From positions 14,663 through 78,662 of the forward strand of contig CAWKMY010000006.1 in the NCBI GenBank assembly GCA_963851055.1: 64,000 nucleotides of DNA, given 5' to 3'. The DNA comes from an uncultured bacterium. Its GTDB lineage: Bacteria; Patescibacteriota; Minisyncoccia; Phycocordibacterales; PALSA-1337. A program made the translations under genes and the position numbers. The notes beneath the pieces were generated by a model, which saw nothing but the letters and a program-made list of their open reading frames with translations, had not been told where the DNA came from and did no database searches. The number at the start of each line of letters is the position of its first letter. Positions within the stretch are counted from its first letter, which is position 1. Below are positions 16,852-31,929 of this stretch, piece by piece.

Positions 16852-16876
16852 GTGTTTATAAAAATTGCATTAAAAT

Positions 16877-17230
16877 TTAGAATTCTAGACCTCCTTCGCG
16901 GGCACCATCGGCTACTAACTTGATCTTGCCTGCATAGAGGTAACCACCCTTGTCGAAGACGACCTTCTTTATCTTTGCCGCTATGGCTTTCTTTGCAAGG
17001 CCCAAACCAACTTCTTTGGCCTTATCAGCTGGACTCTTGCCTTTTGCATCCTTGGAAGAAAATGCCGCCAAAGTATTACCTTTTGTATCATCGATGATCT
17101 GGGCATACATGTAACGATGTGACTTGAAGACAGAAAGGCGTGGGCGCTCGGCCGTGCCGCTTACTTTGGCGCGGACGCGAGCCGCCCTACGAGCAAATTT
17201 CATATTCTGATTTTTGATGATGGATTTCAT
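16877..17230 (-). CDS. rplR: 50S ribosomal protein L18
   Basis: 117 aa, L18 signature and operon position. Confidence 0.9.
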   Translation of the reverse strand: MKSIIKNQNMKFARRAARVRAKVSGTAERPRLSVFKSHRYMYAQIIDDTKGNTLAAFSSKDAKGKSPADKAKEVGLGLAKKAIAAKIKKVVFDKGGYLYAGKIKLVADGAREGGLEF

Positions 17231-17267
17231 GGTGTTGTTTGCTTGATCATTGCGTCATTGATCATTT

Positions 17268-17816
17268 CTACGCGGCTTTCTTTCCTTGCTTCCTGCGGAT
17301 GACTTCATCTGAATATCTGATGCCTTTACCGAGGTAAGGCTCCGGTTTCTTCATGGCACGAACGACGGCCGCGAACTGACCAACTTTCTCGGAATCTATG
17401 CCGCTTATAGTGACGTTATTCTTCTCTGTAGTCACTTTGAGGTCAGTCGGAACTGGTACGTTGATGAGATGTGAGAATCCTACGGCCAAAACGAGATCTT
17501 TACCCTTTATATCAGCCTTGTAACCGATACCTTCTACTATGAGTTTCTTTTCGTAGGCCTTATTGACGCCAGCTATCATATTGCGGATATGCGAAGCGTA
17601 AGTGCCGATCATGGCCTTGGACTGGAGAGTATTCCTGGTCGTAGCTAGAGCGATCTCTTTTGCGCCAGTCTCATTTGCAGTGATAGTGACTGAAACATCA
17701 TCACGGAAATTTTTAGTCAAAGTGCCGAGAGGACCCTTTACGGTCATGACGCCAGCAGCAAAGCTAGCCTCTGTACGGCTCGGAATAATTATTGGTTTCT
17801 TTGCAATGCGTGACAT
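17268..17816 (-). CDS. rplF: 50S ribosomal protein L6
   Basis: 182 aa, two L6 domains; operon position. Confidence 0.9.
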   Translation of the reverse strand: MSRIAKKPIIIPSRTEASFAAGVMTVKGPLGTLTKNFRDDVSVTITANETGAKEIALATTRNTLQSKAMIGTYASHIRNMIAGVNKAYEKKLIVEGIGYKADIKGKDLVLAVGFSHLINVPVPTDLKVTTEKNNVTISGIDSEKVGQFAAVVRAMKKPEPYLGKGIRYSDEVIRRKQGKKAA

Positions 17817-17854
17817 GGTATTTAAATAAGGAGTTAGAAGTTGGGAGTTAGAAG

Positions 17855-18241
17855 TTACCAGATTTTAAATAAAATTTCGCCGCCCAACTTGTGCTTCTTG
17901 GCTTCCATATCAGTCATGATGCCCTTGGAAGTAGAAAGAATGAGGTTTCCGAAGCCGCTACGGAATGAACGTATGTCGCTGGCCTTCTGATAAAGACGGC
18001 GTGAAGGCTTGGACAGGCGCTCAACACCATGGATGCGGGGCTCACCATCGAAATAGACTAGGCCGAGCTCTATCTCTCTTTTGGTCTTTGACTTCTCAAC
18101 AGTAGAGAGATAACCAGCCTTCTTCAGAGAATGAGCTACATTCTCAGCAAATTTGGATCCGAGGACAACGACTGAAGCCTTCTTGGCGTCTGAGCCATTC
18201 TTGATGCGGATTATGAGGTCTGATATTGGGTCGGTTACCAT
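17855..18241 (-). CDS. rpsH: 30S ribosomal protein S8
   Basis: S8 begins at MVTDPISDLIIRIKNG; upstream part of ORF is a read-through extension overlapping rpsN. Confidence 0.85.
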   Translation of the reverse strand: MVTDPISDLIIRIKNGSDAKKASVVVLGSKFAENVAHSLKKAGYLSTVEKSKTKREIELGLVYFDGEPRIHGVERLSKPSRRLYQKASDIRSFRSGFGNLILSTSKGIMTDMEAKKHKLGGEILFKIW

Positions 18242-18420
18242 GATGATTTCTTTATACCTGGAATAGCTCCTTCGTTGGCGAATTCGCGGAAACAGATACG
18301 GCACATGTCGAAGTCGCGCATATAGCCGTGCTTACGACCACAGCGGAAACAGCGTCGAACAACCCTAGACTTGAACTTGGGCTTCTTTTTCGAGCGGGCT
18401 ATGACTGCTTTTGTGGCCAT
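18235..18420 (-). CDS. rpsN: 30S ribosomal protein S14 type Z (zinc-binding, 61 aa)
   Basis: CFRCGRKHGYMRDFDMCRIC four-Cys motif, 61 aa. Confidence 0.85.
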   Translation of the reverse strand: MATKAVIARSKKKPKFKSRVVRRCFRCGRKHGYMRDFDMCRICFREFANEGAIPGIKKSSW

Positions 18421-18571
18421 GGTTATTTTTGCAAAACAAATGGGATTGGTCAGCTGTTCGGCGCTTTTAAGAGCGGACCCGATGTGCTTCCAATCATTTC
18501 CTCATAAAACTCTTGTTTTCTAAGGTAAGGATGATACTAGCAGATGAAGACTAGAGAGTCAATAACAAAAT

Positions 18572-18633
18572 CTTAGGCGAATTTTGAGCGAAAATTATGC
18601 GTTTTTTGATTTCTTTTTGAGCGTTTCTTTATC
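18572..18633 (+). repeat. 62-bp modular interspersed repeat, copy 2, 11 nt upstream of mazF-like start
   Basis: cttaggcgaattttgagcgaaaattatgcgttttttgatttctttttgagcgtttctttatc. Confidence 0.8.
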
Positions 18634-18644
18634 ACCTCTATGAT

Positions 18645-19085
18645 ATGTTGCTGTGTATGGACGAAATATACATCAAAGACTTCGATAAATGGAATGAATG
18701 CCAAAAGGCTCTTGATAAACAAGAATTCGAGGGATTTTGTCGTGAACGAGAAGTTTGGTGGTGCGCCTTGGGAGTGAATATTGGCTCGGAACAAGACGGT
18801 AAGAATGATTTATTTGAACGACCAGTACTCATTATCAAGAAGATCCGAAAAGATCTATTACGCATCATTCCACTTACAAGTAAAATAGAAAACCACGATG
18901 ACCGTATAACTGCGATCATTGCTGGAGAAAAATCCCAAATACTTCTCTCACAAGCTAAAACTATCAGCAGTAAGAGGTTATTAAGAAAAATAGGTTATGT
19001 ACGAATCCCATTATTCCAAGAGGTAATCATCCGTCTAGTCAAATCCATACTTGATATCCCTTACGAAAGCGAAACCCCGCTATAA
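18645..19085 (+). CDS. MazF/PemK/EndoA-family endoribonuclease toxin homologue (no obvious cognate antitoxin ORF)
   Basis: REVWWCALGVNIGSEQDGKNDLFERPVLIIK and SQILLSQAKTISSKRL closely parallel B. subtilis EndoA/MazF ([41 protein letters not shown]). Confidence 0.7.
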   Translation: MLLCMDEIYIKDFDKWNECQKALDKQEFEGFCREREVWWCALGVNIGSEQDGKNDLFERPVLIIKKIRKDLLRIIPLTSKIENHDDRITAIIAGEKSQILLSQAKTISSKRLLRKIGYVRIPLFQEVIIRLVKSILDIPYESETPL

Positions 19086-19577
19086 AAGCGGGGAATCTCG
19101 GAGCCCGAAGGCCAAGGTGATACAAGTATATAGGATATAATTTCTGTGTCAAGAAAGATGCTTAGGTGGCATTCACAGCAAAAATAATAACCTTCATTTC
19201 TTGAGTGTAATGAATGAAAGACAACACAAGAGGCCTCTATTAAAGGCCTCTTGAAGAATCTCCGCGTTTTTCGCAAAGCAAGACTGTTCCGGAGGGACCC
19301 CTATTTTTCTCCCTCAACGCCTTTTCATGCCGTATATAAATCAAGGCCGTAGACCTGGGGGATTTACTACATCAAAACTAGTCTTATGACTACATTTTAA
19401 CAAAAATAAAGGCGTTGTCAAACAAAAAAAATATTCATAAATATGCAGAAAACCCGTGCGATTCCATCGTACGGGTTTTGAATGTCAGCGGCTCATTCCG
19501 TGCCGGGTGGTTAGACCACCAAATTTTTAGGACAAAGGTCAAAGTGACAAAAGTCATCAGTGACTAAGTCCAGAGTG

Positions 19578-20387
19578 CTAACTTGCGGACACCGCGGCCG
19601 GGCTGCGGCCATTGAAGTCAACGTCGAGCCAGCGGTAGACCCAGACCCACCCATCGCCGCGCCAGTAGAGGAAACGGACACAGAGGCGGCCACCGGCGTC
19701 GCGGTATATGGTGCCCCAGAAGAAGACGGCTTTGCCTTTCCATTCCTCCGGAATCAGATGGAGATTCGCCATATAGAAGTCCCCCAATTGGGCACCATAG
19801 ACCGGAACTTTCTCCAGCTTCTGGCGAAGTTTGTTCCCCTGGATCCATTTGCCGTCCTTCTGTCCGTCGTCCAGATGAAGCGCAACTTTCTTGGAGTCGA
19901 ACTTCATGGTGCCACGCACCCGATTGGGAAGCTGTTTGGCATCCGGCAGGATCGTCCAACCTTTCGGCACAGACGGAGCCTTGTCGAAGTCAATCAGGTG
20001 TTCAATGGGTTTGATTTCGGAGCAGCCGCGGATATACGAGAGGATTCGGCCGAGCTTGTCGGTATCCCCCGCGATCGAAGCAAAGTCTGCCTCGCGGAAC
20101 CCCACCTTCTTGGCGTAATCCTCGATGGCCAACAAGGACATGAGGAACGGCTGGCCTTGAATGACTTCCGCCGTGATGGCCTGTTTCCACGGTAGGGCCT
20201 TACGGAGCGCCTCGAGATGTTCGGATTCGACTCCGAACGAGGCGAGCAACTCCAAGGTTGCGGTGATTTCAGAATACGGTGTTTTGACAAGATTCCCTTT
20301 CATAAAGGTCATCCTTTCTTTGTTTGGCTCCCTCTCGCATAGCGAAAGGTCGCTGGTTTTTGTTTGCTGGACTCTTCGCCACAGCAT
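19578..20387 (-). CDS. Hypothetical protein in a conspicuously GC-rich segment
   Basis: 269 aa ORF with protein-like composition; overlapping plus-strand ORF 19560..20195 judged antisense artefact of GC-rich DNA. Confidence 0.45.
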   Translation of the reverse strand: MLWRRVQQTKTSDLSLCEREPNKERMTFMKGNLVKTPYSEITATLELLASFGVESEHLEALRKALPWKQAITAEVIQGQPFLMSLLAIEDYAKKVGFREADFASIAGDTDKLGRILSYIRGCSEIKPIEHLIDFDKAPSVPKGWTILPDAKQLPNRVRGTMKFDSKKVALHLDDGQKDGKWIQGNKLRQKLEKVPVYGAQLGDFYMANLHLIPEEWKGKAVFFWGTIYRDAGGRLCVRFLYWRGDGWVWVYRWLDVDFNGRSPAAVSAS

Positions 20388-20448
20388 TCAAAGGCCTAAG
20401 ATTCAAGCCGCTAAATTAAGGGCTTTTTTTCTGCAATCTTCTAACTCC

Positions 20449-21012
20449 TTACTTCTTACTTCCTGCTTCTTCTCTTTTGAGTGGCAATCCCAGATATTCG
20501 AGGAAAGTGAGAGTGGTCTTCTTGTCGTTGGAAGTAGTAACGAGAGTGATACCCATACCGAAGACGTCTTTGAGGTCCTCATCCGAGGTCTCGGCGAAAA
20601 TACTGTGCTCTTTGATACCGATAGTGTAATTGCCCATGGCGTCGACGGCTGTGCGAGAAAGTCCGCGGAAGTCCTTGGTGCGAGGCAAAGCGATATTGAT
20701 GAGACGATCCATAAACTCTGTCATTCGAGGGCCGCGAAGAGTGACCTGGTAAGCGAGTGGGTCACCAAGGCGAGTCTTGAATGTGGCGATGGCTTTCTTG
20801 GCAACACGAAGAGCAGGCTTCTGACCGGTAATGCGGGCCATACGGTCAGCGATGAGCTCGATCTTCTTCTTGTCTTTGACCGAGCCAAAACCGGTTCCGA
20901 TAACAACTTTGGAGAGCTTCGGAGCTTGCATAGGATTCTTTAGATGGAGCTTTTCCTTAAGAGCGCTGAATGATTCCTTATTTAGCTGTTGAGTTGTCTT
21001 TACGTGTGTCAT
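20449..21012 (-). CDS. rplE: 50S ribosomal protein L5
   Basis: 187 aa, L5 signature. Confidence 0.9.
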   Translation of the reverse strand: MTHVKTTQQLNKESFSALKEKLHLKNPMQAPKLSKVVIGTGFGSVKDKKKIELIADRMARITGQKPALRVAKKAIATFKTRLGDPLAYQVTLRGPRMTEFMDRLINIALPRTKDFRGLSRTAVDAMGNYTIGIKEHSIFAETSDEDLKDVFGMGITLVTTSNDKKTTLTFLEYLGLPLKREEAGSKK

Positions 21013-21035
21013 GGTAGTTTATTGAAAATCCGGAA

Positions 21036-21254
21036 TTAGCTGACTTTAACGACTTTGCTTGCGTGCATGGGCATTGCCCTCTCGACAACTTGACCTTTTT
21101 GGTCTTGCCTCTTTGAACGTTCGTGCTTCTTTACTGTATTCATGCCTTCAATGACGATCTTGTTTACAGCCGGAAAAGCGTGAGCAACCTTGCCGGTCTT
21201 GCCCTTGTCATCGCCTGAGAGTATTTTGACTGTGTCGCCTTTTTTGATATGCAT
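21036..21254 (-). CDS. rplX: 50S ribosomal protein L24
   Basis: KOW motif MHIKKGDTVKILSGDDKGKTGKV. Confidence 0.85.
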   Translation of the reverse strand: MHIKKGDTVKILSGDDKGKTGKVAHAFPAVNKIVIEGMNTVKKHERSKRQDQKGQVVERAMPMHASKVVKVS

Positions 21255-21285
21255 GGTAGTTAAATGAAATGGGAAATTGTATCGG

Positions 21286-21657
21286 TTAGACGATTTCGGC
21301 GGCCTTAGATGCTATGGTTTTGAAACCAGCTTCGGCTATCTCGCGAGGAATAGGCCCGAATATACGTCCGGCAATAGGCTCTTTCTTGTCCTTCTCTATG
21401 ATGACTACTGCATTCTCGTCGAAACGGATGTATGAACCATCTTTTCTGCGAGTGGCTTTGATCTGGCGGACGACGACAGCATGGAGGACGTCCTTCTTCT
21501 TCACAGCCTTACGAGGTTCAGCTTTCTGAACAGACAGAACCACGATCTCACCGAGCTCCGCATAGCGCTTCTTTGACGAACCGAGCACCTTGAATATGCG
21601 TCCGATCTTTGCGCCGGAATTGTCTGCTATATTCACTATTGAGCGGGGTTGGATCAT
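21286..21657 (-). CDS. rplN: 50S ribosomal protein L14
   Basis: MIQPRSIVNIADNSGAK ... classic L14. Confidence 0.9.
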   Translation of the reverse strand: MIQPRSIVNIADNSGAKIGRIFKVLGSSKKRYAELGEIVVLSVQKAEPRKAVKKKDVLHAVVVRQIKATRRKDGSYIRFDENAVVIIEKDKKEPIAGRIFGPIPREIAEAGFKTIASKAAEIV

Positions 21658-21666
21658 ATCGGTATA

Positions 21667-21954
21667 TTATACGATGACCTTAAATGCTTTATTCTTGGAG
21701 ATGGGCTTGCAAGCCTCGATGGTGGCTGTATCCCCCACTTTCTTGGTATTTCCGACATCATGAGCCATGAGCTTGGTCTTACGGGTCTGGAACTTGTGAT
21801 ACTTGGCATGCTTGATGAAACGCTCTATGACTACGACTGTCGTATCTTTCATGCTGGCCGAAGAAACAACGCCTGTATAAGTTTGGCGGTTCACCTTCTT
21901 TGTTGAATCTTTGGAAGAAGCTTCGTCTTTAGTTGTTATCTTGGTTGCGGTCAT
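21667..21954 (-). CDS. rpsQ: 30S ribosomal protein S17
   Basis: 95 aa, S17 OB-fold sequence. Confidence 0.85.
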   Translation of the reverse strand: MTATKITTKDEASSKDSTKKVNRQTYTGVVSSASMKDTTVVVIERFIKHAKYHKFQTRKTKLMAHDVGNTKKVGDTATIEACKPISKNKAFKVIV

Positions 21955-21997
21955 TGGGTTGTTGATACTACTTGAATTTGATTGAAATGTCTATAGT

Positions 21998-22207
21998 CTA
22001 GGCCCTCTTTCCATTATCAATAACAGACATGGCTGTCATGATGCGAGCAATGTCCTTACGGATGGTCCTGCCCTCTTTTACATTCTTGGTCTTGGCACCG
22101 GAAGCACCAAACCTGAATACACGCAAAGCTTCGCGCTTGTCGGAGACCAGTTTGGCTAGGTCTGCTTGAGTCTTATTGGTTATATCCTTCATTTTGGTGG
22201 ATTTCAT
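21998..22207 (-). CDS. rpmC: 50S ribosomal protein L29
   Basis: L29-like 69 aa from internal Met MKSTKMKDITNKTQADLAKLVSDKREALRVFRF; upstream 61 codons of the ORF are non-L29 read-through. Confidence 0.7.
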   Translation of the reverse strand: MKSTKMKDITNKTQADLAKLVSDKREALRVFRFGASGAKTKNVKEGRTIRKDIARIMTAMSVIDNGKRA

Positions 22208-22400
22208 GGGGGACTGAATATAAAAAGCTCCACAGAGCCGTGGGAATAGACTACCAAAGCCGCTTGACAAAGTCAATGAAACGGCTATGATTGATTCCAA
22301 CGAGCAGGCAGGGACAAATTCCTGTAGGAAAAGCCATAAAAAGCTACTTGCCGAGCTGGCCTCCCCCGAAAGGGGGCGGTTTCGTCTCAACCTATGTTAG

Positions 22401-22428
22401 TTGTCCTAATATTCCTTCGTAGTATACT
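22401..22428 (+). promoter_or_regulatory. Sigma70-like promoter (TTGTCC-N16-TATACT) for the antisense cargo genes
   Basis: ttgtcc at 22401-22406, tatact at 22423-22428, ATG at 22431. Confidence 0.45.
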
Positions 22429-22430
22429 TA

Positions 22431-22943
22431 ATGTTAAATATGCTTAAAACAAGGTCACAACAACTGAACGAGCGTTTATACGAGAATGCAATCTTGTATT
22501 TTATCAAGTATTGCAACAATCAATACCTCGGCAAGACTAAGCTGAATAAGCTTTTGTACTACTTGGATTTCATCTCTTTCAGGGATACGACGAAGACCGT
22601 GAGCGGTGATTCGTATGTACATCAGGAATATGGTCCAGTACCCACTCACATGGATCAAGTATTAACCGAACTCAAAACAAAAGGAATTATTGAAACCGAG
22701 GCTATGCCATACAAAGACGGAGAAATGATCCGTTTTCAGATAAAGAAGACTGACTCCTTGAACGAGAATCTCTTCTCTAAGGATCAAAAAATCCTTTTGA
22801 AAGAAATCTGCGATGAATTCGGTAGTTGGTCAACTGACAAGATCGTGACGCAAACACACCTTGAAGCTCCATGGTTCTTCTCCAAGCCATTTGAAATAGT
22901 CGACTACAAATACGCTGAGGATATAGACTTTTTCCGAAAGTAA
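22431..22943 (+). CDS. Panacea-domain (DUF4065, SocA-like) putative antitoxin
   Basis: KLNKLLYYLDFISFRDTTKTVSGDSYVHQEYGPVP matches the DUF4065/Panacea core (KLxKLLYY...GxPxx...EYGPV). Confidence 0.55.
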   Translation: MLNMLKTRSQQLNERLYENAILYFIKYCNNQYLGKTKLNKLLYYLDFISFRDTTKTVSGDSYVHQEYGPVPTHMDQVLTELKTKGIIETEAMPYKDGEMIRFQIKKTDSLNENLFSKDQKILLKEICDEFGSWSTDKIVTQTHLEAPWFFSKPFEIVDYKYAEDIDFFRK

Positions 22944-22957
22944 TCTCTACTAACGCG

Positions 22958-23347
22958 ATGATCTGGATATATGTCGAACGCGAACAGTATGTCCGGATGT
23001 GCGAGAGGCTAAGGATTTCCACTGAATTGCGTGGAGCAATCAAAAGTTGGGCGCAGACGGTATCGAATAAAAGTGAAGCCCCTCGTTTGAAGCTAGTGTA
23101 TCGCTCACCGAATAATCGCTATGAAGCATGGAATGCTGGAATACCTAACCCAGAGAGCAATCGCGGCAAAAGAGGCGGATATCGCATTGTCTATTTCCTT
23201 GATCTTTTCGAAGGATCAATAAACTTGGATTTCATCGAGGAACGGAAGAACCTCGGATTTGGCAATGAACACCCCAGAGATAAAGAGAGATACAATGATT
23301 ATGTACGCGTGCTGAAAGGATATATCTTGAGATTATGCGCGGAGTAG
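22958..23347 (+). CDS. RelE/HigB/Gp49-like putative toxin
   Basis: NRGKRGGYRIVYFLD resembles the G(K/R)xGGYR(V/I)(I/V)Y signature of RelE/ParE-superfamily Gp49/HigB toxins. The gene starts 15 nt downstream of the Panacea gene. Confidence 0.45.
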   Translation: MIWIYVEREQYVRMCERLRISTELRGAIKSWAQTVSNKSEAPRLKLVYRSPNNRYEAWNAGIPNPESNRGKRGGYRIVYFLDLFEGSINLDFIEERKNLGFGNEHPRDKERYNDYVRVLKGYILRLCAE

Positions 23348-23371
23348 GGAAAAAGCTGTTATACTTCCGAT

Positions 23372-24139
23372 ATGAAAGAGTTTGAGCAAATAATAAAAGA
23401 GGCAGAAAAGCAAGAAGAAATCGTAGGCTTGATCTTGCTCGGTTCACGTGGCAAAGGATTTGAGAATGAATACTCCGATTATGATGCAGTGATGATCGTG
23501 AAGGATGAGTTTGCTGGTGCTTTTAGAGAAAGATATGGAAAACGAGATTTTAACAATGTTGAACTCGTGATAATGTCCATTTCTGACTTCAAGAAATATG
23601 CAGAATGGGGCAGTCCCGAATCGTGGGACAAATACGATTATGCCCATACAAAAATACTTGTAGACAAGACTAACGATTTACCTGCTCTTGTCAAAGAAAA
23701 AGGATTTGTGCCAGCAGAAAAATTGGAAGAGTTTATTGGTGGCTGTATAGATGGATATGTGAATGGGGCATATCGTTCGATAAAATGTATCCGTAATAAC
23801 AATCTATTCGGTGCACGCTTGGAAGCGTCTAACTCGATGCTTGACTTACTAACCTGTGTTTTCGCCTTCAATGGCAGATGCAGGCCTTTTCTTGGGTATG
23901 TCGAGAAGGAACTCGAGAAGTATCCGCTGGAATATCTCCCGTGGCATTCCATCGAACTTCTGGCAAAAATAGAAAAAGTGCTGGCAACTGCAGACCTTAA
24001 AACTCAACAGGAACTACTTATGGGAATTGAAAAGATGAGCCGTGAGACTGGGCATGGCAAAGTGTTCGATGGCTGGAAGGGCAAGGATAAGTGGGCGATG
24101 GAATATAAGCCCGCAGTAAAATCAAAAACCAAGCAGTAA
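23372..24139 (+). CDS. ANT(6)/AadK-family nucleotidyltransferase (streptomycin adenylyltransferase-like)
   Basis: EIVGLILLGSRGKGFENEYSDYDAVMIVKDEF matches the ANT(6) N-terminal GSR...SDYD(I/V)...V.D nucleotidyltransferase motif; about 255 aa as in AadE/AadK. Confidence 0.6.
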   Translation: MKEFEQIIKEAEKQEEIVGLILLGSRGKGFENEYSDYDAVMIVKDEFAGAFRERYGKRDFNNVELVIMSISDFKKYAEWGSPESWDKYDYAHTKILVDKTNDLPALVKEKGFVPAEKLEEFIGGCIDGYVNGAYRSIKCIRNNNLFGARLEASNSMLDLLTCVFAFNGRCRPFLGYVEKELEKYPLEYLPWHSIELLAKIEKVLATADLKTQQELLMGIEKMSRETGHGKVFDGWKGKDKWAMEYKPAVKSKTKQ

Positions 24140-24140
24140 G

Positions 24141-24566
24141 TTAACCCCTCGCCACTATCTTTGTCTTCATCGGAAGTTTGGTACCAGCCTTGCGAAGGGC
24201 TTCATGAGCTACAGCCGGTTCTACACCGTCTATCTCGAACATGACGCGACCTGGCTTGACCACGGCTACGAATCCGACAGGTTCTCCCTTGCCCTTTCCC
24301 ATTTTCACTTCGGCAGGCTTCTGGGTGAAAGGATGATCAGGGAAAATGCGGATCCAAACTTTACCGGTCTTTCCTGCATTGTGCATGGCGGCCTTGCGTG
24401 CTGACTCGATCTGGTTGGAAGTGACGCGGCCATACTTCATGGCTTTCAAACCAAAAGAACCAAAAGAAACTTCGAGACCACGAGTCTCTGTCTTCATCGA
24501 TTCCTTGGCAGCGTTCTTGCGCTTTGTGAACCACTTGCGATGCTTTACTTTCTTTGGGAATAACAT
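24141..24566 (-). CDS. rplP: 50S ribosomal protein L16
   Basis: [13 protein letters not shown] ... classic L16. Its stop codon lies 1 nt from the convergent ANT(6)-like stop. Confidence 0.9.
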
Positions 24567-24615
24567 TGTAGTTAATTATTCAATGATCAATTTTCAATGA
24601 TCATTGTGTTATTGA

Positions 24616-25287
24616 TTATTTCTTCATATCCGCCTTAAATATCTCACCCTTGTATATCCAAACCTTTATGCCTATGTCTCCATAAGTCATATGCGCCTTC
24701 TCGCGAGCAAAATCAATGTCGGCGCGCAAAGTCTGGAGAGGGACTTGGCCTTTCTTGAGCTCTTCTGAGCGGGCGATTTCAGCACCACCGAGACGACCGC
24801 CGAGACGGACGCGGATGCCTTTGACTTCTTTGTGAGCCATGACCTTTTCTATAGTCTGCTTGAGAACACGGCGGAATGGCAGACGCTTCTCGAGAGCTTC
24901 AGCTATCATCATTCCGGTAATGGCGGCATTTGATTCTGGGCCGCGGATCTCTTCGACATCGAGCTTGAGCTCCTGACCCTTGAGATCAATCTTGGCTTTG
25001 CGGATGAGAGTCATTACCTTCTCGCGCAGCTTGACGATACCGTCGCCGGCCTTGCCTATGAGCATACCTGGACGAGAAGTTTTGACGATAACGCGTATAC
25101 CCTTCTGGGTGCGCTCTATATCTATACCTCCGAGGTAGAATGAGCGCAATTCTTTCTGCAAGAATTCGCGGATAATAATGTCGGTCTTCAGTGCTGTGCG
25201 ATATTCCTGATCCACGCGGAACCAGCGGCTCTTCCAGTCGCGAATGATTCCTAGTCTATGAGAATATGGGTGTACGGTGTGTGACAT
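24616..25287 (-). CDS. rpsC: 30S ribosomal protein S3
   Basis: 223 aa with KH domain and S3 C-terminal domain. Confidence 0.9.
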   Translation of the reverse strand: MSHTVHPYSHRLGIIRDWKSRWFRVDQEYRTALKTDIIIREFLQKELRSFYLGGIDIERTQKGIRVIVKTSRPGMLIGKAGDGIVKLREKVMTLIRKAKIDLKGQELKLDVEEIRGPESNAAITGMMIAEALEKRLPFRRVLKQTIEKVMAHKEVKGIRVRLGGRLGGAEIARSEELKKGQVPLQTLRADIDFAREKAHMTYGDIGIKVWIYKGEIFKADMKK

Positions 25288-25288
25288 G

Positions 25289-25618
25289 TTATTTGGAAGC
25301 TAATGTTATGGAAACGTGGCTGGTGCGCTTCTTTATAGGATGGGCGGAGCCACGCGATACTGGCATATGGCGCTTCAGGACATATCCCTGATTTACCTGG
25401 ATCTCTTTTACAAAAAGGGTTGCCTTGTCTAACTTGTGATTGTGAGAGGCGTTGGCAACAGCAGAATCTATGAGGTCAGCCAATGGATGACGAGCCTTCT
25501 TGTCTACGTTAGCAAGAATGGTCAAAGCCTGTGCTATCCCCTTTCCGCGTATCATATCAGCCACAACGCGAACTTTGCGTGGAGAAATTCTATAGTTCTG
25601 TAGGGATGCGGTGACCAT
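25289..25618 (-). CDS. rplV: 50S ribosomal protein L22
   Basis: 109 aa, L22 signature. Confidence 0.9.
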   Translation of the reverse strand: MVTASLQNYRISPRKVRVVADMIRGKGIAQALTILANVDKKARHPLADLIDSAVANASHNHKLDKATLFVKEIQVNQGYVLKRHMPVSRGSAHPIKKRTSHVSITLASK

Positions 25619-25638
25619 GTTAGTTAGGAGTTAGGAGA

Positions 25639-25989
25639 TTATTTTTTGGTACTGCCCTCGGAGGCGGCGGCCTTGGCGGCGGATGCGGCTGCGACTTCAG
25701 CCTCCTTGGCCTTGAGCTCAATCTCCTTCTGCATCTTACCTCCATGGCGTACGAACTTCTTCGTAGGCGAGAATTCACCGAGGCGGTGTCCAACCATATC
25801 CTCGGTGACTAGTACTTCATTATGAACTCTTCCATTGTGAACGCCGAAAGTGAATCCAACCATCTCTGGAGAAATCTGTGAGCGGCGAGCCCAAGTTTTT
25901 ATGATGCCTGCTGTCGCAGGTTTCTTGCCGGCTATTTTGTGAAGCAGGCGTTCATCCACGTATGGACCTTTAGATAGTGATCTGGACAT
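25639..25989 (-). CDS. rpsS: 30S ribosomal protein S19 with A/K-rich C-terminal tail
   Basis: S19 core from [12 protein letters not shown]; C-terminal [29 protein letters not shown] extension. Confidence 0.85.
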
Positions 25990-26063
25990 AAAAAAGCTCG
26001 TAGCGAGCGTAAGAGGCATGGTAGCATAGCCAGTTTAGGCCGTCAAATTGGCGTGAGACAGGT

Positions 26064-26411
26064 CTATTTTGTGTATTTTATAGGCGCTTCCTGAACAGAT
26101 AATACTAGAGTATCTTCAGCCACCTCGTAACCATGTGGAACACCTTTAGGAAGATCAATGACCTGCCCTGATTTATAATCAATATTTTTGTCTCCGAGAA
26201 TAGCTATGCCTTTACCTTTTAGTATATACAACTTAGAAGAGGCCTCATTGTGTGAATGAACCGGGTCTATAACGCCTTTGGCGAGAAAGGCAAATACAAT
26301 TTGCTGACCATCTTCAAATACAGGAAAGATAAAAACATCTCGTTCCTCCTTACCTTTCCCAAGGTGTTTATGAGTGAGTAGATTCTTTAATATAATAAAT
26401 AAATTATCCAT
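26064..26411 (-). CDS. Cupin-domain protein
   Basis: 115 aa, two-His cupin motifs (HSHNEASSKLYILKG ... GVPHGYEV). Confidence 0.5.
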   Translation of the reverse strand: MDNLFIILKNLLTHKHLGKGKEERDVFIFPVFEDGQQIVFAFLAKGVIDPVHSHNEASSKLYILKGKGIAILGDKNIDYKSGQVIDLPKGVPHGYEVAEDTLVLSVQEAPIKYTK

Positions 26412-26418
26412 ATTAATA

Positions 26419-27093
26419 TTATTTTCTACCCCAAACTAATACGCGTTTTCTGATTCCATAACCTGGACGGAAATACCTTAAGTACTTAGAACCAACTGAT
26501 TTATAACCAGATCTTTTAAGAGAATCTCTAAGATATTTTGCAGAGAACCAATATATATTTTTAAAACCATCGTGTATCTGTACTGGCACTTTCTTTGTCG
26601 GTGAATCATTTGCAATAAATAATACCCCGTCTTCCTTTAAAGCCTTTTTTGCCTCTGCCAGAAATTTTCCCACAGATGCATTTTTATCTGCTAAATGACC
26701 AATCACCCCATCGCTTAAGATCAGATCAAAATGATTATTGAGGTCGAATTTTCCTGTTGCATCTAAATACTTAACCTTGAGTCCTTTGGCCATAGCAAAC
26801 TTCAAAGCTTGTATCGACACATCGGTCGCCAACACATTGCAACCACTATCGGCTAGTCTCTTCTCTATAAAAGCATTGCCGCAACCAATACTTAATATAT
26901 TTGGCTTTTTTACCCTCTTTAGAAGAGATAGTATATCTGAGCAAATTGCTTCTAGATAATCTTTGTCAAAAGTTGATGGAGTAATCGAGCTCCCAACATT
27001 TTTTCCCTTTTCCCAAAGCTCAAATCTAGACCGACCATCTTGTACTGGTTCTTCATACATCCTCACTGTTTCTTTTATCTCCGACAATCTCAT
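26419..27093 (-). CDS. Class I SAM-dependent methyltransferase
   Basis: Motif I ILSIGCGNAFIEKRLADSGCNVLATDVS and downstream acidic motif LILSDGV. Confidence 0.6.
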   Translation of the reverse strand: MRLSEIKETVRMYEEPVQDGRSRFELWEKGKNVGSSITPSTFDKDYLEAICSDILSLLKRVKKPNILSIGCGNAFIEKRLADSGCNVLATDVSIQALKFAMAKGLKVKYLDATGKFDLNNHFDLILSDGVIGHLADKNASVGKFLAEAKKALKEDGVLFIANDSPTKKVPVQIHDGFKNIYWFSAKYLRDSLKRSGYKSVGSKYLRYFRPGYGIRKRVLVWGRK

Positions 27094-27169
27094 CGCAAAA
27101 ATATATCATAATCGTAGGCAAAAAACCCGTAGCGCAATGCCACGGGCTGACTACTTTATGAAAAACAGG

Positions 27170-28090
27170 CTAATTGTGAACCGCCTTCGAAGAGCTGGCG
27201 CACAAGTCGTGAGCAAACTTCTCGACTGGCGTAAGGTCATATGCGGCAACGAGCCACAATAAACCGTGCGCCACACCAATAACAAGCGGATCTTGGCGCG
27301 GAATCTCCTTGACCTTCCAAGACTCATCCGGTGCTTCGGCGACGATAAACATGTCATCGAAGCGAGGACAACCTGGTTTTGGATCAAGCCAACCACGGAC
27401 TTGTTCACGAACATCTGACGGCATCACACCGCCATACTTGGCCGTAAGCTCAATCCGCTCAAGGTTTTTGGAGTCACACCAAGCGCCGAGGCTTTGGCGA
27501 AGATTCGCGTCCAAATAATGCGTGGCCATAATTTCCGGAATTTTTGGAGAAATACTGAATCCGGAAGTCGTGGTCCGTGCTAGGCCTCGCCTCTCGATCA
27601 ACTCGACAAGGGGAATGGCCGCTTGTCTTTCTTGAAAGAGATCATTCATCCAAGATGAACGGCCATCGTGAGTGAAGACCACCGTCATCGTATCACTGTC
27701 TAGACGGAAGATTGAAAAGGCGGGAAAGCCCTCTTGGGTCTTCCAAGACAGGAATGAAGGATCAATCGTCGGTAATTCGAACTCCGGAGTATGTTCAAAC
27801 CTGGCAATTTCCCGACCAACCACACCTAGCCGAAAATCAAGGGTGGTCTTCAGTTCAGTCTCGAGAAGCAAAGCGCGGTGCAAAGTATTTTGCATCAGGC
27901 GCCTGGAACTGTAGAGCCTTTCGAGCTTGACTGGGTCCTCCAATTCTTGGAGTGAGAGATGCCGAGCCGTCAATGCGGCGACTGGCACAAATTCACCGAT
28001 TTTTAGGAGCCGATTTCCTATTCTGGCTCCCATGAGCGGGGGTTGGGTAACATTAGTTTTCATAGGACTATGTGGTTGTTTGTTTTGCAT
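27170..28090 (-). CDS. Hypothetical protein (GC-richer than flanks)
   Basis: 306 aa ORF; no recognisable family. Confidence 0.4.
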   Translation of the reverse strand: MQNKQPHSPMKTNVTQPPLMGARIGNRLLKIGEFVPVAALTARHLSLQELEDPVKLERLYSSRRLMQNTLHRALLLETELKTTLDFRLGVVGREIARFEHTPEFELPTIDPSFLSWKTQEGFPAFSIFRLDSDTMTVVFTHDGRSSWMNDLFQERQAAIPLVELIERRGLARTTTSGFSISPKIPEIMATHYLDANLRQSLGAWCDSKNLERIELTAKYGGVMPSDVREQVRGWLDPKPGCPRFDDMFIVAEAPDESWKVKEIPRQDPLVIGVAHGLLWLVAAYDLTPVEKFAHDLCASSSKAVHN

Positions 28091-28263
28091 GGCTATCCTG
28101 TCGTCACTTTCAGACAGGACTCATGTATTTCCTCTATAAGTATAGCTCCGTATAAGATTGCAACAACGTAAAAGTTGATAAAAGGTGCATAACTTTTAGG
28201 CAAAAACGGGCTTACGATCAGGCCTTGTATACCATGCTATAATTCCCCCACAACTCCTCTTCC

Positions 28264-29082
28264 ATGGCATCCTCATATATCCCCGACACCATAGACTTCC
28301 TTGGGCAAAACCCGGTCTGGCTACTCGCCCTAGCGACGGCCATCATCCTGACTATCACCCTCATCAATCACATCCTTTGGCGCAAACTGAAGGAAGGTGA
28401 GAAATTGAAATATGAATTCATCACCATCATGGCCCACAAGTTCCGCACGCCACTCACCCATATCAAGTGGATATCGGACGAGTTGGTAGGAACGGTTCAA
28501 GACCAGCGGATAAAAGAGGGCCTGGAGCAGATACGGCGAGCCGGTACAAATCTAGTGGGACTGACCACCACTCTACTAGAACTGACCGATTCGAGAAAAG
28601 AAAAGACCTTATACGCTTTCGAACGGACAAACTTGTGCGACTTTGTCCGTACCATAGGCGAAGCAGCCAGAAGGACATTTCAAGAGAAGAACATTTCCTT
28701 CTCCGTAGTCTGTGACGATGGACCCGTTTTCGCCAAAATAGATAAGCCGCGCATGGAATTTGCCGTGCAAGTGCTCATGGATAACGCCTTTGCTTACACT
28801 CCCACCGGCAAAGTTGTGGCGATAACGGTCTCGAGGTCCGGACGCAAAGCGAACATATCCGTCAAAGATAACGGTATAGGTATCAGGCCGGAGGATATGA
28901 AGAAGATTTTCGGCAAATTCTTCCGGGCAGGCAATGCCCAGGCTATGGACACGGAAGGGTTCGGCGTCGGTTTATATCTAGCCAGATCAGTGGTAGAAAG
29001 GCACCATGGAAAGTTGGAAGCCTTCTCGGATGGAGAGGGCTTCGGCTCTACGTTCAAGATAGTTTTGAGAGCGATCAAATAG
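28264..29082 (+). CDS. Orphan sensor histidine kinase (1 TM, HisKA + HATPase_c)
   Basis: H-box MAHKFRTPLTHIKWISDEL; N, G1 (DNGIGI) and G2 (GFGVGL) boxes; no response regulator adjacent. Confidence 0.7.
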   Translation: MASSYIPDTIDFLGQNPVWLLALATAIILTITLINHILWRKLKEGEKLKYEFITIMAHKFRTPLTHIKWISDELVGTVQDQRIKEGLEQIRRAGTNLVGLTTTLLELTDSRKEKTLYAFERTNLCDFVRTIGEAARRTFQEKNISFSVVCDDGPVFAKIDKPRMEFAVQVLMDNAFAYTPTGKVVAITVSRSGRKANISVKDNGIGIRPEDMKKIFGKFFRAGNAQAMDTEGFGVGLYLARSVVERHHGKLEAFSDGEGFGSTFKIVLRAIK

Positions 29083-29189
29083 AACCCCGACGGGTACTAT
29101 TCCACAATTTCACCGGTGACTATGATCTTGGCGATTTTGTGAATGACAGCTTTGGTGGTCTTGATGAAAAAATCTACTATTGCCATTGA

Positions 29190-30041
29190 TTAGAGTTTGG
29201 TTTTCTTCTTGCCAACCTGACGGCGAGAGACGATGAAAATATTCGAGTATTTCTTTGGAGTCCTGGTCTTCTGACCCTTACCTGCTGGCTTACCCCAGCG
29301 AGTCTTGAGTCGGCGTAGACCGCGACCAGAGCGCTGTTCACCTCCGCCATATGGGTGATCTACTGGGTTCTGGGCGGAGCCACGAACTGTAGGACGTATA
29401 CCCATCCAACGGGTACGACCTGCTTTGCCGATATTAACCAGACGACTCTCTTCATTGGAAACGGCGCCGATAGTGGCCCAAGCATCTTCGTGGACTTTGC
29501 GTACTTCGCTGGAAGGCATCTTTATGTGCGTATAGCTCTGGTCATTAGCGACTACTTGACCGAATGAACCGGCGGAACGAACTAGTTTAGCTCCTGAACC
29601 TGGCTTGATCTCTATATTGAAAATGAATGTGCCGACAGGGATCTTCTTCAAAGGCAGGCGATTGCCCGTCTCTATAGGAGCGTGCTCGGATACCATAAAT
29701 GAGTTACCGACTTTCATCGTCTTTGGCAAAAGCACATAGCGCTTTGTGCCGTCCTTGTATGCCACGAGGCCGATGTAGCCAGTACGGAAAGGATCGTACT
29801 CTATGGTTTTGACCGTAGCTATGATGTCTTTCTTGTCATAATTGAAATCTATCTCACGGTAGAGCTTGGCATGACCTCCTCCCTTGTGGCGAACAGTGAT
29901 ACGACCAAAGGCATTGCGTCCCATGTCGCGCTTCCAACCATGAGTCAGAGGCTTGTAAGGCTCTGAAGCGGTCAGATATTGCTTGAACGGCAATACTGTC
30001 ATGTGGCGGCGAGATTTGGATGTTGGGCGGAATGATTTCAT
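29190..30041 (-). CDS. rplB: 50S ribosomal protein L2
   Basis: 283 aa, L2 signature incl. GGGEQR-like region. Confidence 0.9.
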   Translation of the reverse strand: MKSFRPTSKSRRHMTVLPFKQYLTASEPYKPLTHGWKRDMGRNAFGRITVRHKGGGHAKLYREIDFNYDKKDIIATVKTIEYDPFRTGYIGLVAYKDGTKRYVLLPKTMKVGNSFMVSEHAPIETGNRLPLKKIPVGTFIFNIEIKPGSGAKLVRSAGSFGQVVANDQSYTHIKMPSSEVRKVHEDAWATIGAVSNEESRLVNIGKAGRTRWMGIRPTVRGSAQNPVDHPYGGGEQRSGRGLRRLKTRWGKPAGKGQKTRTPKKYSNIFIVSRRQVGKKKTKL

Positions 30042-30084
30042 GGAAGTAAATATGCAAATATACGAATGATGCTAATGATACGAA

Positions 30085-30585
30085 TTATACAAAGTCGATT
30101 TTGTCGCCCGCTTTCAGCGTGACCAACGCTTTGCGGAAACCAGCCACTCTACCCTTCTTGCCGCGGAGGAAGACCTTCTTTGCCGGAGCATTCATGACTG
30201 CGACTTTGACCGGGGTGACTTTGTATAGAGCCTTCACGGCCTTGGCGATAGAATGCTTGTTGGCTGAACGTCCGACTTCGAAAGTATAGACGCCAGTTTG
30301 GCTCAAAAGGCCTGATTTCTCTGTGATGCGAGGGCGGATGATAGAATCTGTGACACTAGAGAAAACACCGGCCGGCAATGCTGCACCTGACTTTGCGGCG
30401 GCGGCATCTTTGGTGACTAAAGCACGAGCGACCTTCTCCGGCTTAACTGATGAAGACCTTCTCGCGCCTTTCTGAGGAGTGCCACCTTTCTTTCCGGCTA
30501 CAGATGAGGCCTTAGCCAGATTGGCTTCCGCCTGAACATGGCTCTGTGCGTGCTTCTTATCTGTTCTAAATCCGAATAAAGGCAT
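30085..30585 (-). CDS. rplW: 50S ribosomal protein L23 with about 70-aa A/K-rich N-terminal extension
   Basis: C-terminal L23 domain (YTFEVGRSANKHSIAKAVKALYKVTPVKVAVMN); N-terminal low-complexity region. Confidence 0.8.
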   Translation of the reverse strand: MPLFGFRTDKKHAQSHVQAEANLAKASSVAGKKGGTPQKGARRSSSVKPEKVARALVTKDAAAAKSGAALPAGVFSSVTDSIIRPRITEKSGLLSQTGVYTFEVGRSANKHSIAKAVKALYKVTPVKVAVMNAPAKKVFLRGKKGRVAGFRKALVTLKAGDKIDFV

Positions 30586-30596
30586 GGTAGTTAAGG

Positions 30597-31280
30597 TTAT
30601 TTGGTGGTTTTAGCTGCACTCGGAGTCTTAGCTGAAAAAGCTTTCAACGATTGTTCTGGATTGGCGATGATCAGATACTTGTGATTCATGACCGAGACCG
30701 GATTTATATTGCGGAATTCCTCAACTGAAACATTACCAAGGTTACGGAAGCTCTTTTCGATGATGGTTGACTTGGAATCTGTAGCAATGATAGCGGTATT
30801 GACCTTTTTTGTGGCGAGTTTTTCATAGCCCTTAATTGTGGCCAATGAGGAAAGAATCGTCTTTGCGTCTTTTGCCTTTGGGGCGGACATATTCAAAGTA
30901 TCGACAAAGAGAATGTCGCCATCTTTGAACTTGCGTGACAATACAATGAAAAGCGCCTTGGAACGAACCTTCTTGTTGATCTTACGGGAATAATTCTGAT
31001 CATTCCTAGGACCATGAGCTATACCACCACCTACCCAGATAGGAGAACGTGTGGAACCGTGACGAGCGCGGCCAGTACCCTTCTGCTGCCAAGGCTTCTT
31101 ACCACCACCACGGACTTCTCCACGGGTCTTGGTATGAGCGACGTTATCGCGAGAGTTATTATTCATGAGACGAACGACTTCGTGGACCAAGTCAGCATTC
31201 CATGGCAGGCCGAATACTCCTTCAGGGAGTTTCATCTTCCCTGTTTCTTTGCCTGATTGATTGTAGATTTTTGTTTCCAT
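30597..31280 (-). CDS. rplD: 50S ribosomal protein L4
   Basis: 227 aa, L4 signature. Confidence 0.9.
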   Translation of the reverse strand: METKIYNQSGKETGKMKLPEGVFGLPWNADLVHEVVRLMNNNSRDNVAHTKTRGEVRGGGKKPWQQKGTGRARHGSTRSPIWVGGGIAHGPRNDQNYSRKINKKVRSKALFIVLSRKFKDGDILFVDTLNMSAPKAKDAKTILSSLATIKGYEKLATKKVNTAIIATDSKSTIIEKSFRNLGNVSVEEFRNINPVSVMNHKYLIIANPEQSLKAFSAKTPSAAKTTK

Positions 31281-31304
31281 TTTATTGAATCAAATTTCGC
31301 CCTA

Positions 31305-31929
31305 TTAGCCGACGATCTCGACAAGCGTTCCGCGGCGTCCCGGGATAGCTCCGGCAACATACAGGATATTCTCTTCTGGGTCAACGTGAGCGATCTTCAG
31401 ATTCTTTACGGTGATGCGATCCGATCCCATGCGTCCAGCCATGCGCATACCTGTCGGTACGCGGTTACGCAAACCTCCGCCGATGGAACCTGGCTCGCGC
31501 TCGCTGTGCTTCTGGCCGTGAGAACGAGGACCTCCGTGGAAACCATGGCGCTTGACCACACCCTGAAAGCCTTTACCTTTTGAAACAGCCGAGACAACGA
31601 CAACGTCACCAGCTTTGAATTGTGAGAGCTCTACTTTGTCGCCGATCTTTAAGAGCAGGGGCTATCTGACCCGGAGTCTGGTCCGTTCGAAATTCAGATA
31701 AAGCGGCAAAATTACCAAGATCTTTGAAATGGCCTTTTTGAGCCTTATTTATCTTATTGGCATTGCGCTCACCTTCTCCTACCTGAACAGCTTCATAGCC
31801 GTCATTTTCCTTTGTCCTCAATTGGGTGACAATATTACCACGGGCGACAACCAGAGTAACTGGAATAGCCGCGCCTGAGGCATCGTAGATTTGGGACATG
31901 TTTAACTTTCTTCCAAGAATAAATTTCAT
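31305..31929 (-). CDS. rplC: 50S ribosomal protein L3, split into two ORFs by an apparent +1 frameshift near 31647-31652
   Basis: N-terminal ORF 31606-31929 (MKFILGRKLNMSQIYD...) and C-terminal ORF 31305-31559 (VKRHGFHGGPRSHGQKHSER...). The conserved GDKVELSQFKAGDVVVVSAVSKGKGFQGVVKRHGF is readable in the second frame upstream of the annotated Met. The frames meet at cttaaagatcgg. Confidence 0.8.

Follow-up and report, generated by a model that had tools for sequence, protein, structure and literature searches.

A stand-alone Pol-beta nucleotidyltransferase of an uncharacterised mobile family within a Patescibacteriota ribosomal gene cluster

The gene, its protein and its family

We focus here on a single gene at positions 23372 to 24139 of a 64,000-nucleotide stretch of contig CAWKMY010000006.1 (hereafter the window), which comes from an uncultured bacterium of the Patescibacteriota. 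An original prediction had taken this gene for a streptomycin adenylyltransferase of the ANT(6) family, embedded in the operon that encodes the target of the drug. Our analysis shows instead an enzyme of known kind, from an uncharacterised family, whose expression is not tied to that of the ribosomal genes. The gene and the two domains of its product are as follows.

23372..24139, plus strand: stand-alone two-domain Pol-beta nucleotidyltransferase of 255 amino acids (aa), from the open reading frame (ORF), the family alignment, an AlphaFold2 model and Foldseek
23372..23704, plus strand: N-terminal catalytic domain, residues 1-111, from the PF01909, PF18765 and PF04439 matches, which fall on the N terminus only, and from the hhalign alignment to an ANT(6) profile
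23705..24121, plus strand: C-terminal all-helical domain, residues 112-250, presumed to bind the acceptor, from the family alignment and a domain model with a predicted local distance difference test (pLDDT) score of 94.2

The ORF of 255 codons, with an ATG start and a TAA stop, fills 23372..24139 exactly, and it is a real gene. In a collection of 5.8 billion proteins it has 154 homologues of ~245-260 aa, at 43-70% identity and mainly from metagenome-assembled genomes (MAGs) of Patescibacteria, while an exhaustive hidden Markov model (HMM) search of 1.84 billion cluster representatives returned 909 relatives at E<=1e-3, of which 214 reach E<=1e-30. An alignment of 40 family sequences contains 29 invariant columns, spread along the full length. 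An assembly chimera at this locus could also be ruled out, since the independent Logan assembly ERR10755936 (L052) shows the identical order of a Panacea gene, a 129-aa gene, the 255-aa gene and rplP.

Three Pfam models match the window protein, all of them marginally and all within the first ~60 residues: NTP_transf_2 (PF01909; 23.2 bits, cut-off 21), Polbeta (PF18765; 24.3 bits, under the model's cut-off) and Adenyl_transf (PF04439). The Pol-beta signature reads G24-S25...D36-x-D38 (G-S-x10-D-x-D), and these four residues are invariant in 40 of 40 family members, as part of a longer N-terminal set that comprises G24, S25, R26, G27, K28, G29, S35, D36 and D38. The third carboxylate is E64 in the window protein, with D at this position in 34 of the 40 relatives and D or E in 36; the same domain also bears D98-K99 inside 'LVDKT'. 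The pattern of the Pol-beta superfamily, G-S-x(9-13)-D-x-D(E) followed by a third carboxylate on the next strand, is present in full, and the original prediction was right to see a nucleotidyltransferase, the nearest solved folds being those of antibiotic nucleotidyltransferases. Judged by these residues, the window protein is probably competent in catalysis. In the C-terminal domain the invariant residues are D127, Y129, N131, R135, K138, S155, P172, Y176, E180, Q212, Q213, D233, W235 and W241. The window protein thus belongs to a conserved, uncharacterised family of ~250-aa stand-alone Pol-beta nucleotidyltransferases, which is mildly acidic (median pI 5.3).

Members of this family are stand-alone, with no partner gene, patchy in their distribution and horizontally mobile. 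Matches in genomes extend over Patescibacteria, Heimdall-/Promethearchaeota, Woese-, Nano- and Micrarchaeota, Chloroflexota, Acidobacteriota, Trueperaceae, SAR324 and an Actinoplanes MAG, and five Streptomyces plasmids bear relatives at 28-32% identity. The four of these plasmids that were inspected are all linear, and on each the gene stands alone among insertion sequence elements or integrases. The gene is also cargo beside a serine recombinase at two further loci (L005 and L008). A search of 2.9 million viral contigs found no relatives of the enzyme.

Gene neighbourhoods were surveyed at ~40 distinct homologue loci (out of 45 returned from GTDB species representatives, plus others), taking three genes on each side and comparing them by all-against-all BLAST. 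No conserved neighbour was found in these loci, apart from a cluster specific to Asgard archaea. The immediate neighbours include rpoB|trmD, ftsZ, a uvrC-like gene, endonuclease V, CYTH, glyoxalase-family genes and methyltransferases, and further DUF1697, a Crp regulator, a MazF toxin, P-loop kinases (AAA_18) and a serine recombinase with a helix-turn-helix gene. Among 147 neighbour proteins, the commonest families are Lactamase_B (9, largely the Asgard paralogues), Fic (4), Glyoxalase (4), GNAT (3) and APH (2). Fusions of family members are to an APH-family kinase, PNP_UDP_1, a 2H phosphoesterase and GrpB (P0381, P0257, P0323 and P0005), P0381 being the fusion of the nucleotidyltransferase with an APH domain. 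A fused APH and P-loop-kinase gene lies directly upstream of one homologue (L009, 4518..5993), and another such gene (L018, 3699..5180) lies two genes upstream of a second homologue, with a methyltransferase between.

Several single loci deserve mention. In four Heimdall-/Promethearchaeota MAGs (L020, L021, L024 and L027) the homologue is clustered with two or three paralogous genes for ~228-aa proteins of the metallo-beta-lactamase fold and with a gene for a 129-aa PLAT-domain protein; no other neighbourhood was found to recur in the family. On the plasmid p_Plas1 of Streptomyces sp. A144 (L142, 6062..7672) a 30%-identical relative is divergent from an adjacent gene annotated 'Pycsar system effector family protein', and this neighbour is found on p_Plas1 only, not on the three other Streptomyces plasmids inspected. 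A Truepera MAG (L050, 5992..7725) has what appears to be an interrupted homologue, whose residues 2-131 and 130-246 are encoded by separate ORFs; the ~0.9 kb between these contains a 205-aa ORF in the opposite direction.

Relation to ANT(6) in sequence and in fold

Divergent 'aad-like' and other resistance-like genes have been reported in Candidate Phyla Radiation genomes from lenient BLAST screens, with no experimental test (PMC8651080). For the window gene, the assignment to ANT(6) rests on the Adenyl_transf model, PF04439, which the protein matches with 22.7 bits against a cut-off of 22, over residues 4-45 and profile positions 8-51 of 279. Our positive control, the ANT(6)-Ia encoded by ant(6)-Ia of plasmid pRE25, matches the same profile with 404.6 bits across positions 1-278 of 279. 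Within the family, 20 of 40 members reach PF04439 at E<=0.01, always with their N terminus, and 39 of 40 reach the generic Polbeta model. The ANT(6) label thus rests, as far as sequence goes, on 44 N-terminal residues that correspond to the generic G-S...D-x-D motif.

Other models and profiles give the same picture. NCBIfam, including its curated resistance (AMRFinder) models, contains no match for the window protein beyond MntA_antitoxin (NF047752) at E 0.04, and searches of all PDB chains with the protein sequence and with the family profile returned nothing significant. PADLOC and PHROGs yielded weak N-terminal matches only, among them PADLOC PDC-S09 at E 0.0015, with no PADLOC match at the level of a system. 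We also aligned the family with hhalign to an ANT(6) profile built from 18 sequences. The two profiles align with 83% probability (E 8.6e-6) over residues 1-107 only, a stretch that takes in G-S...D-x-D, the strand of the third carboxylate (E64; D100 in ANT(6)-Ia) and the (V/I)L(V/I)DK strand. The profile of the C-terminal domain, on the other hand, aligns to that of ANT(6) with 0.3% probability, that is, with no sequence similarity, and the residues invariant in the C-terminal part of ANT(6) differ from those invariant in the present family. Against the family profile, single sequences of ANT(6)-Ia and of ANT(4')-Ia (pUB110) reach 2.8% and 2% probability, respectively. Four of the Streptomyces plasmid relatives carry the PGAP product label 'hypothetical protein', and the fifth is without annotation.

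At the level of sequence, the window protein fails every test of ANT(6) membership, with a partial PF04439 match, no NCBIfam or antimicrobial resistance (AMR) model and an unrelated C-terminal domain, and the family assignment made in the original prediction has to be given up. The gene is not an ANT(6) gene, and it is very unlikely to confer streptomycin resistance.

The predicted structure gives a wider view. The AlphaFold2 model computed from the family alignment (pLDDT 94.7, predicted template modelling score 0.88) has its catalytic domain, of alpha/beta type, at residues 1-~110, followed by an all-helical domain at 115-245. The best Foldseek match of the whole protein in the PDB is the streptomycin complex of ANT(6)-Ib (8vxb; E 4.5e-6, template modelling (TM) score 0.45), alongside LinB (3jyy; E 1e-5, TM 0.48) and ANT(4')-Ia (6p01), which has the highest whole-protein TM, 0.53. 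Further matches are 3c18, then HalB (9dbj/9dbh; TM 0.29-0.32, E 8e-5), AAD(9), AadK (2pbe, E 2e-3) and AadA. The two-domain architecture of the antibiotic nucleotidyltransferases is recovered with 8vxb, 3jyy, 6nmk, 6p01 and 1kny (E 4.5e-6 to 4e-4), in alignments of 246-291 columns at TM 0.45-0.53 that speak to architecture only and not to activity. When the C-terminal domain is modelled alone, with similar confidence to the whole, its matches by TM and probability are ANT(6)-Ib (0.54 and 0.95), 3c18 (0.52 and 0.97), AadK 2pbe (0.52 and 0.87) and ANT(4') (0.50 and 0.63), with the HEPN protein 2hsb at TM 0.41. The N-terminal domain has MntA-type antitoxins (7bxo and 7ae9) among its fold matches, and a sequence match to 7ae2 stands at E 0.57. 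On this model the protein falls, as a matter of fold class only, among the antibiotic nucleotidyltransferases, and of these ANT(6) is nominally the closest; LinB and ANT(4') fit the predicted fold about equally well.

The insert between rplP and rpmC

The setting of the gene was central to the original prediction, in which a place inside the S10 operon would tie its dosage to ribosome synthesis. The ribosomal genes concerned are listed here.

24141..24566, minus strand: rplP (L16), convergent with the nucleotidyltransferase gene, from Pfam Ribosomal_L16
21998..22207, minus strand: rpmC (L29), the far flank of the insert, from Pfam Ribosomal_L29 (residues 68-121 of a long ORF) and tblastn to relatives
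44033..44455, minus strand: rpsL (S12), E 9.6e-52 to Bacillus subtilis uS12

The minus strand carries the ribosomal genes, in the order S19, L22, S3, L16, then L29, S17, L14, L24 and L5, and the gap between L16 and L29 is occupied by 1.9 kb of plus-strand material in which the nucleotidyltransferase gene is the third and last. Its TAA (24137..24139, plus) and that of rplP (24141..24143, minus) face each other 1 nt apart. Since it lies on the opposite strand with convergent stops, the gene is not part of the ribosomal protein transcript. It does sit within the S10 operon in position, between rplP and rpmC, as predicted, yet not in terms of transcription. Read-through from rplP would be antisense to it. 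There is no terminator between the convergent stops at 24137..24143, and transcription of either unit is bound to overlap or run into that of the other.

A comparison with 80 metagenomic loci whose L16 proteins are 60-84% identical to that of the window bears on how the arrangement arose. L29 follows L16 within 147 nt in 62 of these loci and S17 follows L16 directly in 10 more, while a relative of the enzyme is found in none of the 80. With L29 or S17 usually next to L16 and the enzyme absent throughout, the insert is acquired, a derived state and not an ancestral one. The third-position G+C content (GC3) of the nucleotidyltransferase gene is 0.42, against 0.48-0.57 for the flanking ribosomal protein genes. 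No convincing direct or inverted repeats were found to bound the insert. In at least eight of the comparison loci (L081, L088, L091, L097, L106, L107, L109 and L124) S17 lies 27-91 nt after L16 and no L29 was detected there; in these lineages rpmC is either absent at that point or has diverged beyond detection.

An antisense gene within an acquired insert gives no support to a dosage coupled to ribosome synthesis. It is conceivable, though we doubt it, that read-through of the S10-spc genes opposes expression of the insert, so that the toxin-antitoxin pair described below and the enzyme are expressed inversely to ribosome synthesis. The distance to rpsL, predicted as about 20 kb, is indeed 19.9 kb. 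However, homologues are found in unrelated contexts (at rpoB|trmD, downstream of ftsZ or of a uvrC-like gene, next to recombinases, on Streptomyces plasmid arms), and nearness to the streptomycin target is therefore incidental. In S12 itself the PKKPNS and RVKD lysines are wild-type and no resistance-type substitution is present, an observation that speaks neither for nor against a need to modify the drug.

The other components of the insert, in order, are these.

22264..22291, plus strand: putative sigma-70-like promoter, near-consensus TTGACA-16-TATGAT with 11 of 12 matches, by consensus match only
22297..22361, plus strand: DUF3800-II RNA motif (Rfam RF02961), starting 6 nt past the promoter-like site
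22359..22377, plus strand: G+C-rich hairpin with a weak T tail, directly 3' of the RNA motif
22431..22943, plus strand: Panacea (SocA/DUF4065) antitoxin-domain protein of 170 aa (PF13274, E 1.4e-18)
22958..23347, plus strand: RelE-like toxin candidate of 129 aa, partner of the Panacea gene, with the motif KRGGYRIVYF

The nucleotidyltransferase gene starts 24 nt past the RelE-like gene on the same strand, and co-transcription with the toxin-antitoxin pair seems probable. Panacea is known as a promiscuous antitoxin domain, paired most often with toxins of the RelE fold, MqsR-like ones among them (PMC8832971). The 129-aa protein has no match in Pfam and aligns weakly to Escherichia coli RelE (E 1.1); it has 178 homologues of ~127 aa in Patescibacteria, several of which bear the JGI name 'mRNA-degrading endonuclease RelE'. 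A Panacea gene precedes the ~127-aa gene in seven loci fetched, in two distinct genomic settings, and the enzyme follows in none of them. The RNA motif scores 53.5 bits against a gathering threshold of 43.2 (E 3.9e-8 in the window, 2e-10 in a local search). Its core sequence is absent from all 134 other loci checked, and an Rfam scan found none in five related rplP loci, L094 among them, nor in four loci with the Panacea pair. In those parts of the window that were scanned, Pfam revealed no gene for a DUF3800 protein. The function of DUF3800 RNA motifs is not known (PMC5737381). The pair and the enzyme each occur elsewhere without the other, and neither brings the RNA along in the loci checked; the insert is thus a composite in which the RNA gene, the toxin-antitoxin module of two genes and the stand-alone enzyme gene are independent of one another.

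The ribosomal supercluster of the window as a whole (14200..44000, minus strand, str-S10-spc type) is broken by accessory genes at at least five junctions, listed below with two further features of the window.

fusA|rpsG junction: HigB-like toxin, 42946..43197, and a 69-aa partner, 43209..43418
rplB|rpsS junction: cupin, 26064..26411; methyltransferase, 26419..27093; a 306-aa ORF; histidine kinase, 28264..29082
rplP|rpmC junction: the nucleotidyltransferase insert
rplE|rpsN junction: a 269-aa ORF, 19578..20387, and a MazF-like gene, 18645..19085, with S14 at 18235..18420
rplO|secY junction: two small ORFs, plus strand, 14430..15296
10575..11456: rve-family transposase
461..823, minus strand: tmRNA gene (Rfam 106 bits; ARAGORN tag peptide AKTVSPYFTERDFAFALV)

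The genes inserted in the supercluster have low GC3 (0.28-0.42, against 0.48-0.60). Related loci show comparable events: L061, with an L16 that is 80% identical, has a different ORF of 407 aa right after rplP (3133..4356), and L094 has a Panacea gene paired with a 126-aa RelE-like gene between rplE and rpsN, on the ribosomal protein strand (2777..3662). The junctions of the ribosomal cluster look like recurrent landing sites.

Acceptor, alternatives and known systems

We regard it as a little better than an even bet that the window protein is a self-sufficient, Mg2+-dependent nucleotidyltransferase from an uncharacterised mobile family, a distant structural cousin of ANT(6), ANT(4') and LinB, which arrived in the insert. 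In this genome it came in with the 1.9-kb segment that separates rplP from rpmC, in the orientation opposite to theirs. The N-terminal Pol-beta domain is expected to bind a nucleoside triphosphate with Mg through G24-S25-R26/K28 and D36/D38/E64, the invariant face of the helical domain (D127, Y129, N131, R135, K138, E180, Q212, Q213, D233 and W235) may hold the acceptor, and a nucleoside monophosphate would then be transferred to a hydroxyl of the acceptor. Our best guess for that acceptor is a small-molecule toxin or antibiotic-like compound, which would make the gene a one-gene detoxification system. A small molecule is favoured because of the mobility of the single gene, its fold neighbours, and the repeated links to APH-type kinases and small-molecule enzymes; hints of the same sort among the neighbours of homologues are the glyoxalase/bleomycin-resistance family, GNAT, the metallo-beta-lactamase fold, methyltransferases and DUF1697. 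It is conceivable, though we doubt it, that the family forms a new class of single-gene mobile nucleotidyltransferases that inactivate toxins or antibiotics, with an acceptor unlike those of the known ANT and Lnu classes and with members on linear Streptomyces plasmids and in Patescibacteria, DPANN and Asgard archaea.

Several observations weigh against a small-molecule acceptor, and against a close reading of the fold. No acceptor-specific signature for a small molecule was found, and each neighbour family occurs in fewer than 10% of the loci once the Asgard paralogues are set aside. The structural alignments have 11-16% identity, with a whole-protein TM of only ~0.5 and a root-mean-square deviation of 6-8 A, and the C-terminal domain alone reaches no significant Foldseek E-value (0.35-0.87 for ANT(6)-Ib and 2pbe). 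Bacterial and archaeal members, at 35-70% identity, have ~30 invariant residues in common, and a single cellular substrate that is itself conserved would explain this no less well than a xenobiotic would. Furthermore, the AAA_18 kinases, CYTH and endonuclease V among the neighbours, and the fusions to PNP_UDP_1 and 2H phosphoesterase, point to nucleoside or nucleotide chemistry or to that of RNA ends, and 12 of the 40 family members have weak matches to RlaP, an RNA-repair Pol-beta enzyme. A macromolecular or nucleotide-related acceptor stays a serious rival because of these ~30 invariant residues and the nucleotide- and RNA-related neighbours and fusions.

Such a macromolecular acceptor could mean a protein AMPylase of the MNT/HEPN kind, in which a minimal nucleotidyltransferase is fused to a HEPN-like domain, or an RNA 3'-end or RNA-repair nucleotidyltransferase, and serious as it is we consider it rather improbable. 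Residues so strongly conserved from one domain of life to another suggest a cellular target that is conserved too, the window gene sits in a toxin-antitoxin island, and the N-terminal domain resembles MntA-type antitoxins in fold and, weakly, in sequence (NF047752, 7ae2); helical C-terminal domains of the ANT(4') type are reportedly regarded as HEPN-like, which would count on the same side, as does the match to 2hsb. Yet the RlaP and MntA matches are limited to the generic N-terminal motif, the best full-length structural matches are small-molecule enzymes, and neither a conserved partner (a separate HEPN toxin, or RtcB or a ligase) in the loci surveyed nor a conserved Rx4-6H in the C-terminal domain was found. 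A role of the latter domain as a HEPN RNase was rejected, the sole recurrent Rx4H being N-terminal, with K in its place in the window protein.

A genuine aminoglycoside nucleotidyltransferase, one that adenylylates streptomycin or a related aminoglycoside and protects its own ribosome, ANT(6)-like in function despite its divergence, seems to us very unlikely. The complex of ANT(6)-Ib with streptomycin is the top whole-protein fold match and ANT(6)-Ib has the highest TM for the C-terminal domain; the N-terminal profiles align well, down to the third carboxylate and the LVDKT / LIDKD strands. The mildly acidic pI and the APH-family links fit such a role, and with wild-type S12 lysines a drug-modifying enzyme would not be redundant. 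Set against this are the 44 generic residues matched in PF04439 where ANT(6)-Ia matches over its full length, the lack of a match to any NCBIfam or AMR HMM, the equally good fit of LinB and ANT(4'), and the C-terminal domain, which shapes the acceptor site in this class of enzymes and has neither sequence similarity to ANT(6) nor its invariant residues. Occurrence in Asgard and DPANN archaea would also be odd for a drug aimed at bacterial ribosomes. Streptomycin specifically is thus an unlikely acceptor. We give at least as little credit to a part in a local defence or toxin-antitoxin module, either as a third gene of the Panacea/RelE-like pair, possibly with the DUF3800-II RNA, or as a signalling nucleotidyltransferase like HalB of Hailong. 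The gene follows the RelE-like gene closely, with no obvious promoter of its own, and Panacea systems sometimes have accessory third genes (PMC8832971); HalB is among the fold matches, PDC-S09 among the PADLOC matches, and one Streptomyces plasmid relative adjoins the Pycsar-type gene. However, the pair lacks the enzyme in every other locus inspected (L094 and L135-L141), the enzyme is found without the pair in the other homologue loci, and Panacea is not among the 25 commonest neighbour families of the ~45 homologue loci, the contigs of this genome itself (the window and L052) excepted. The DUF3800-II core is missing from the 134 loci, HalB reaches a TM of only ~0.3 with no channel-type effector adjacent, and the viral contigs hold no relatives. 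The suggestion that the gene might be a nucleotidyltransferase of a defence system thus finds no conserved partner to lean on.

If, in line with our preferred reading of a small-molecule acceptor, a natural product is inactivated, the family would stand for a kind of resistance or detoxification so far unrecognised and invisible to present resistance-gene models, and one that already extends over very distant lineages, among them antibiotic-producing Streptomyces and host-dependent ultra-small cells. The main value of this work is nevertheless corrective: a marginal Pfam match to 'streptomycin adenylyltransferase' over a generic 44-residue motif does not make a resistance gene, and a gene that lies among ribosomal genes need not be co-expressed with them. 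To specialists the surroundings may be of more interest, with a cluster broken at five junctions and a DUF3800-II RNA without a nearby DUF3800 gene.

Compared with known systems, the enzyme shares its Pol-beta catalytic fold with MntA of the MNT-HEPN type VII toxin-antitoxin systems and with HalB of Hailong. MntA-type enzymes, however, are ~100-140 aa with a separate partner, and no HEPN gene is among the frequent neighbours of the homologues; HalB has 220 aa and a channel partner, whereas the neighbours in the window are the RelE-like gene and rplP, with no adjacent HalA-type membrane effector. DUF4037 proteins (PF13228) are reached marginally, at E<=0.01, by 8 of 40 family members, though not by the window protein itself, for example by P0069 with 23.1 bits (cut-off 22.1) over residues 92-172. 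An uncharacterised Exiguobacterium protein, 3c18, matches the C-terminal domain no less closely than ANT(6) does. A likewise uncharacterised 'nucleotidyltransferase domain-containing protein' of 289 aa (WP_000228166.1), encoded on pRE25 upstream of ant(6)-Ia/sat4/aph(3')-IIIa (L053, 36346..37215), aligns to the family profile better than ANT(6)-Ia does, with 61% probability (E 7.9e-5) over 121 columns that include the start of the C-terminal helix. ANT(4')-Ia (1kny, 6p01) and LinB (3jyy) are close in size (~253-267 aa), in two-domain architecture and in TM (0.48-0.53), but none of their catalytic-base or acceptor residues can be mapped onto the window protein. With respect to ANT(6) (PF04439; ANT(6)-Ia/aadE, ANT(6)-Ib 8vxb and AadK 2pbe), the window protein is ~45 residues shorter, its structural alignments have 14-16% identity with a TM of ~0.45 for the whole and 0.52-0.54 for the C-terminal domain, and profile matches end at residue 45 (PF04439) or 107 (hhalign), before a C-terminal domain that is unrelated in sequence. 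What the two have in common is the build of a Pol-beta domain followed by a helical C-terminal domain, together with G-S...D-x-D, the strand of the third carboxylate and the (V/I)L(V/I)DK strand.

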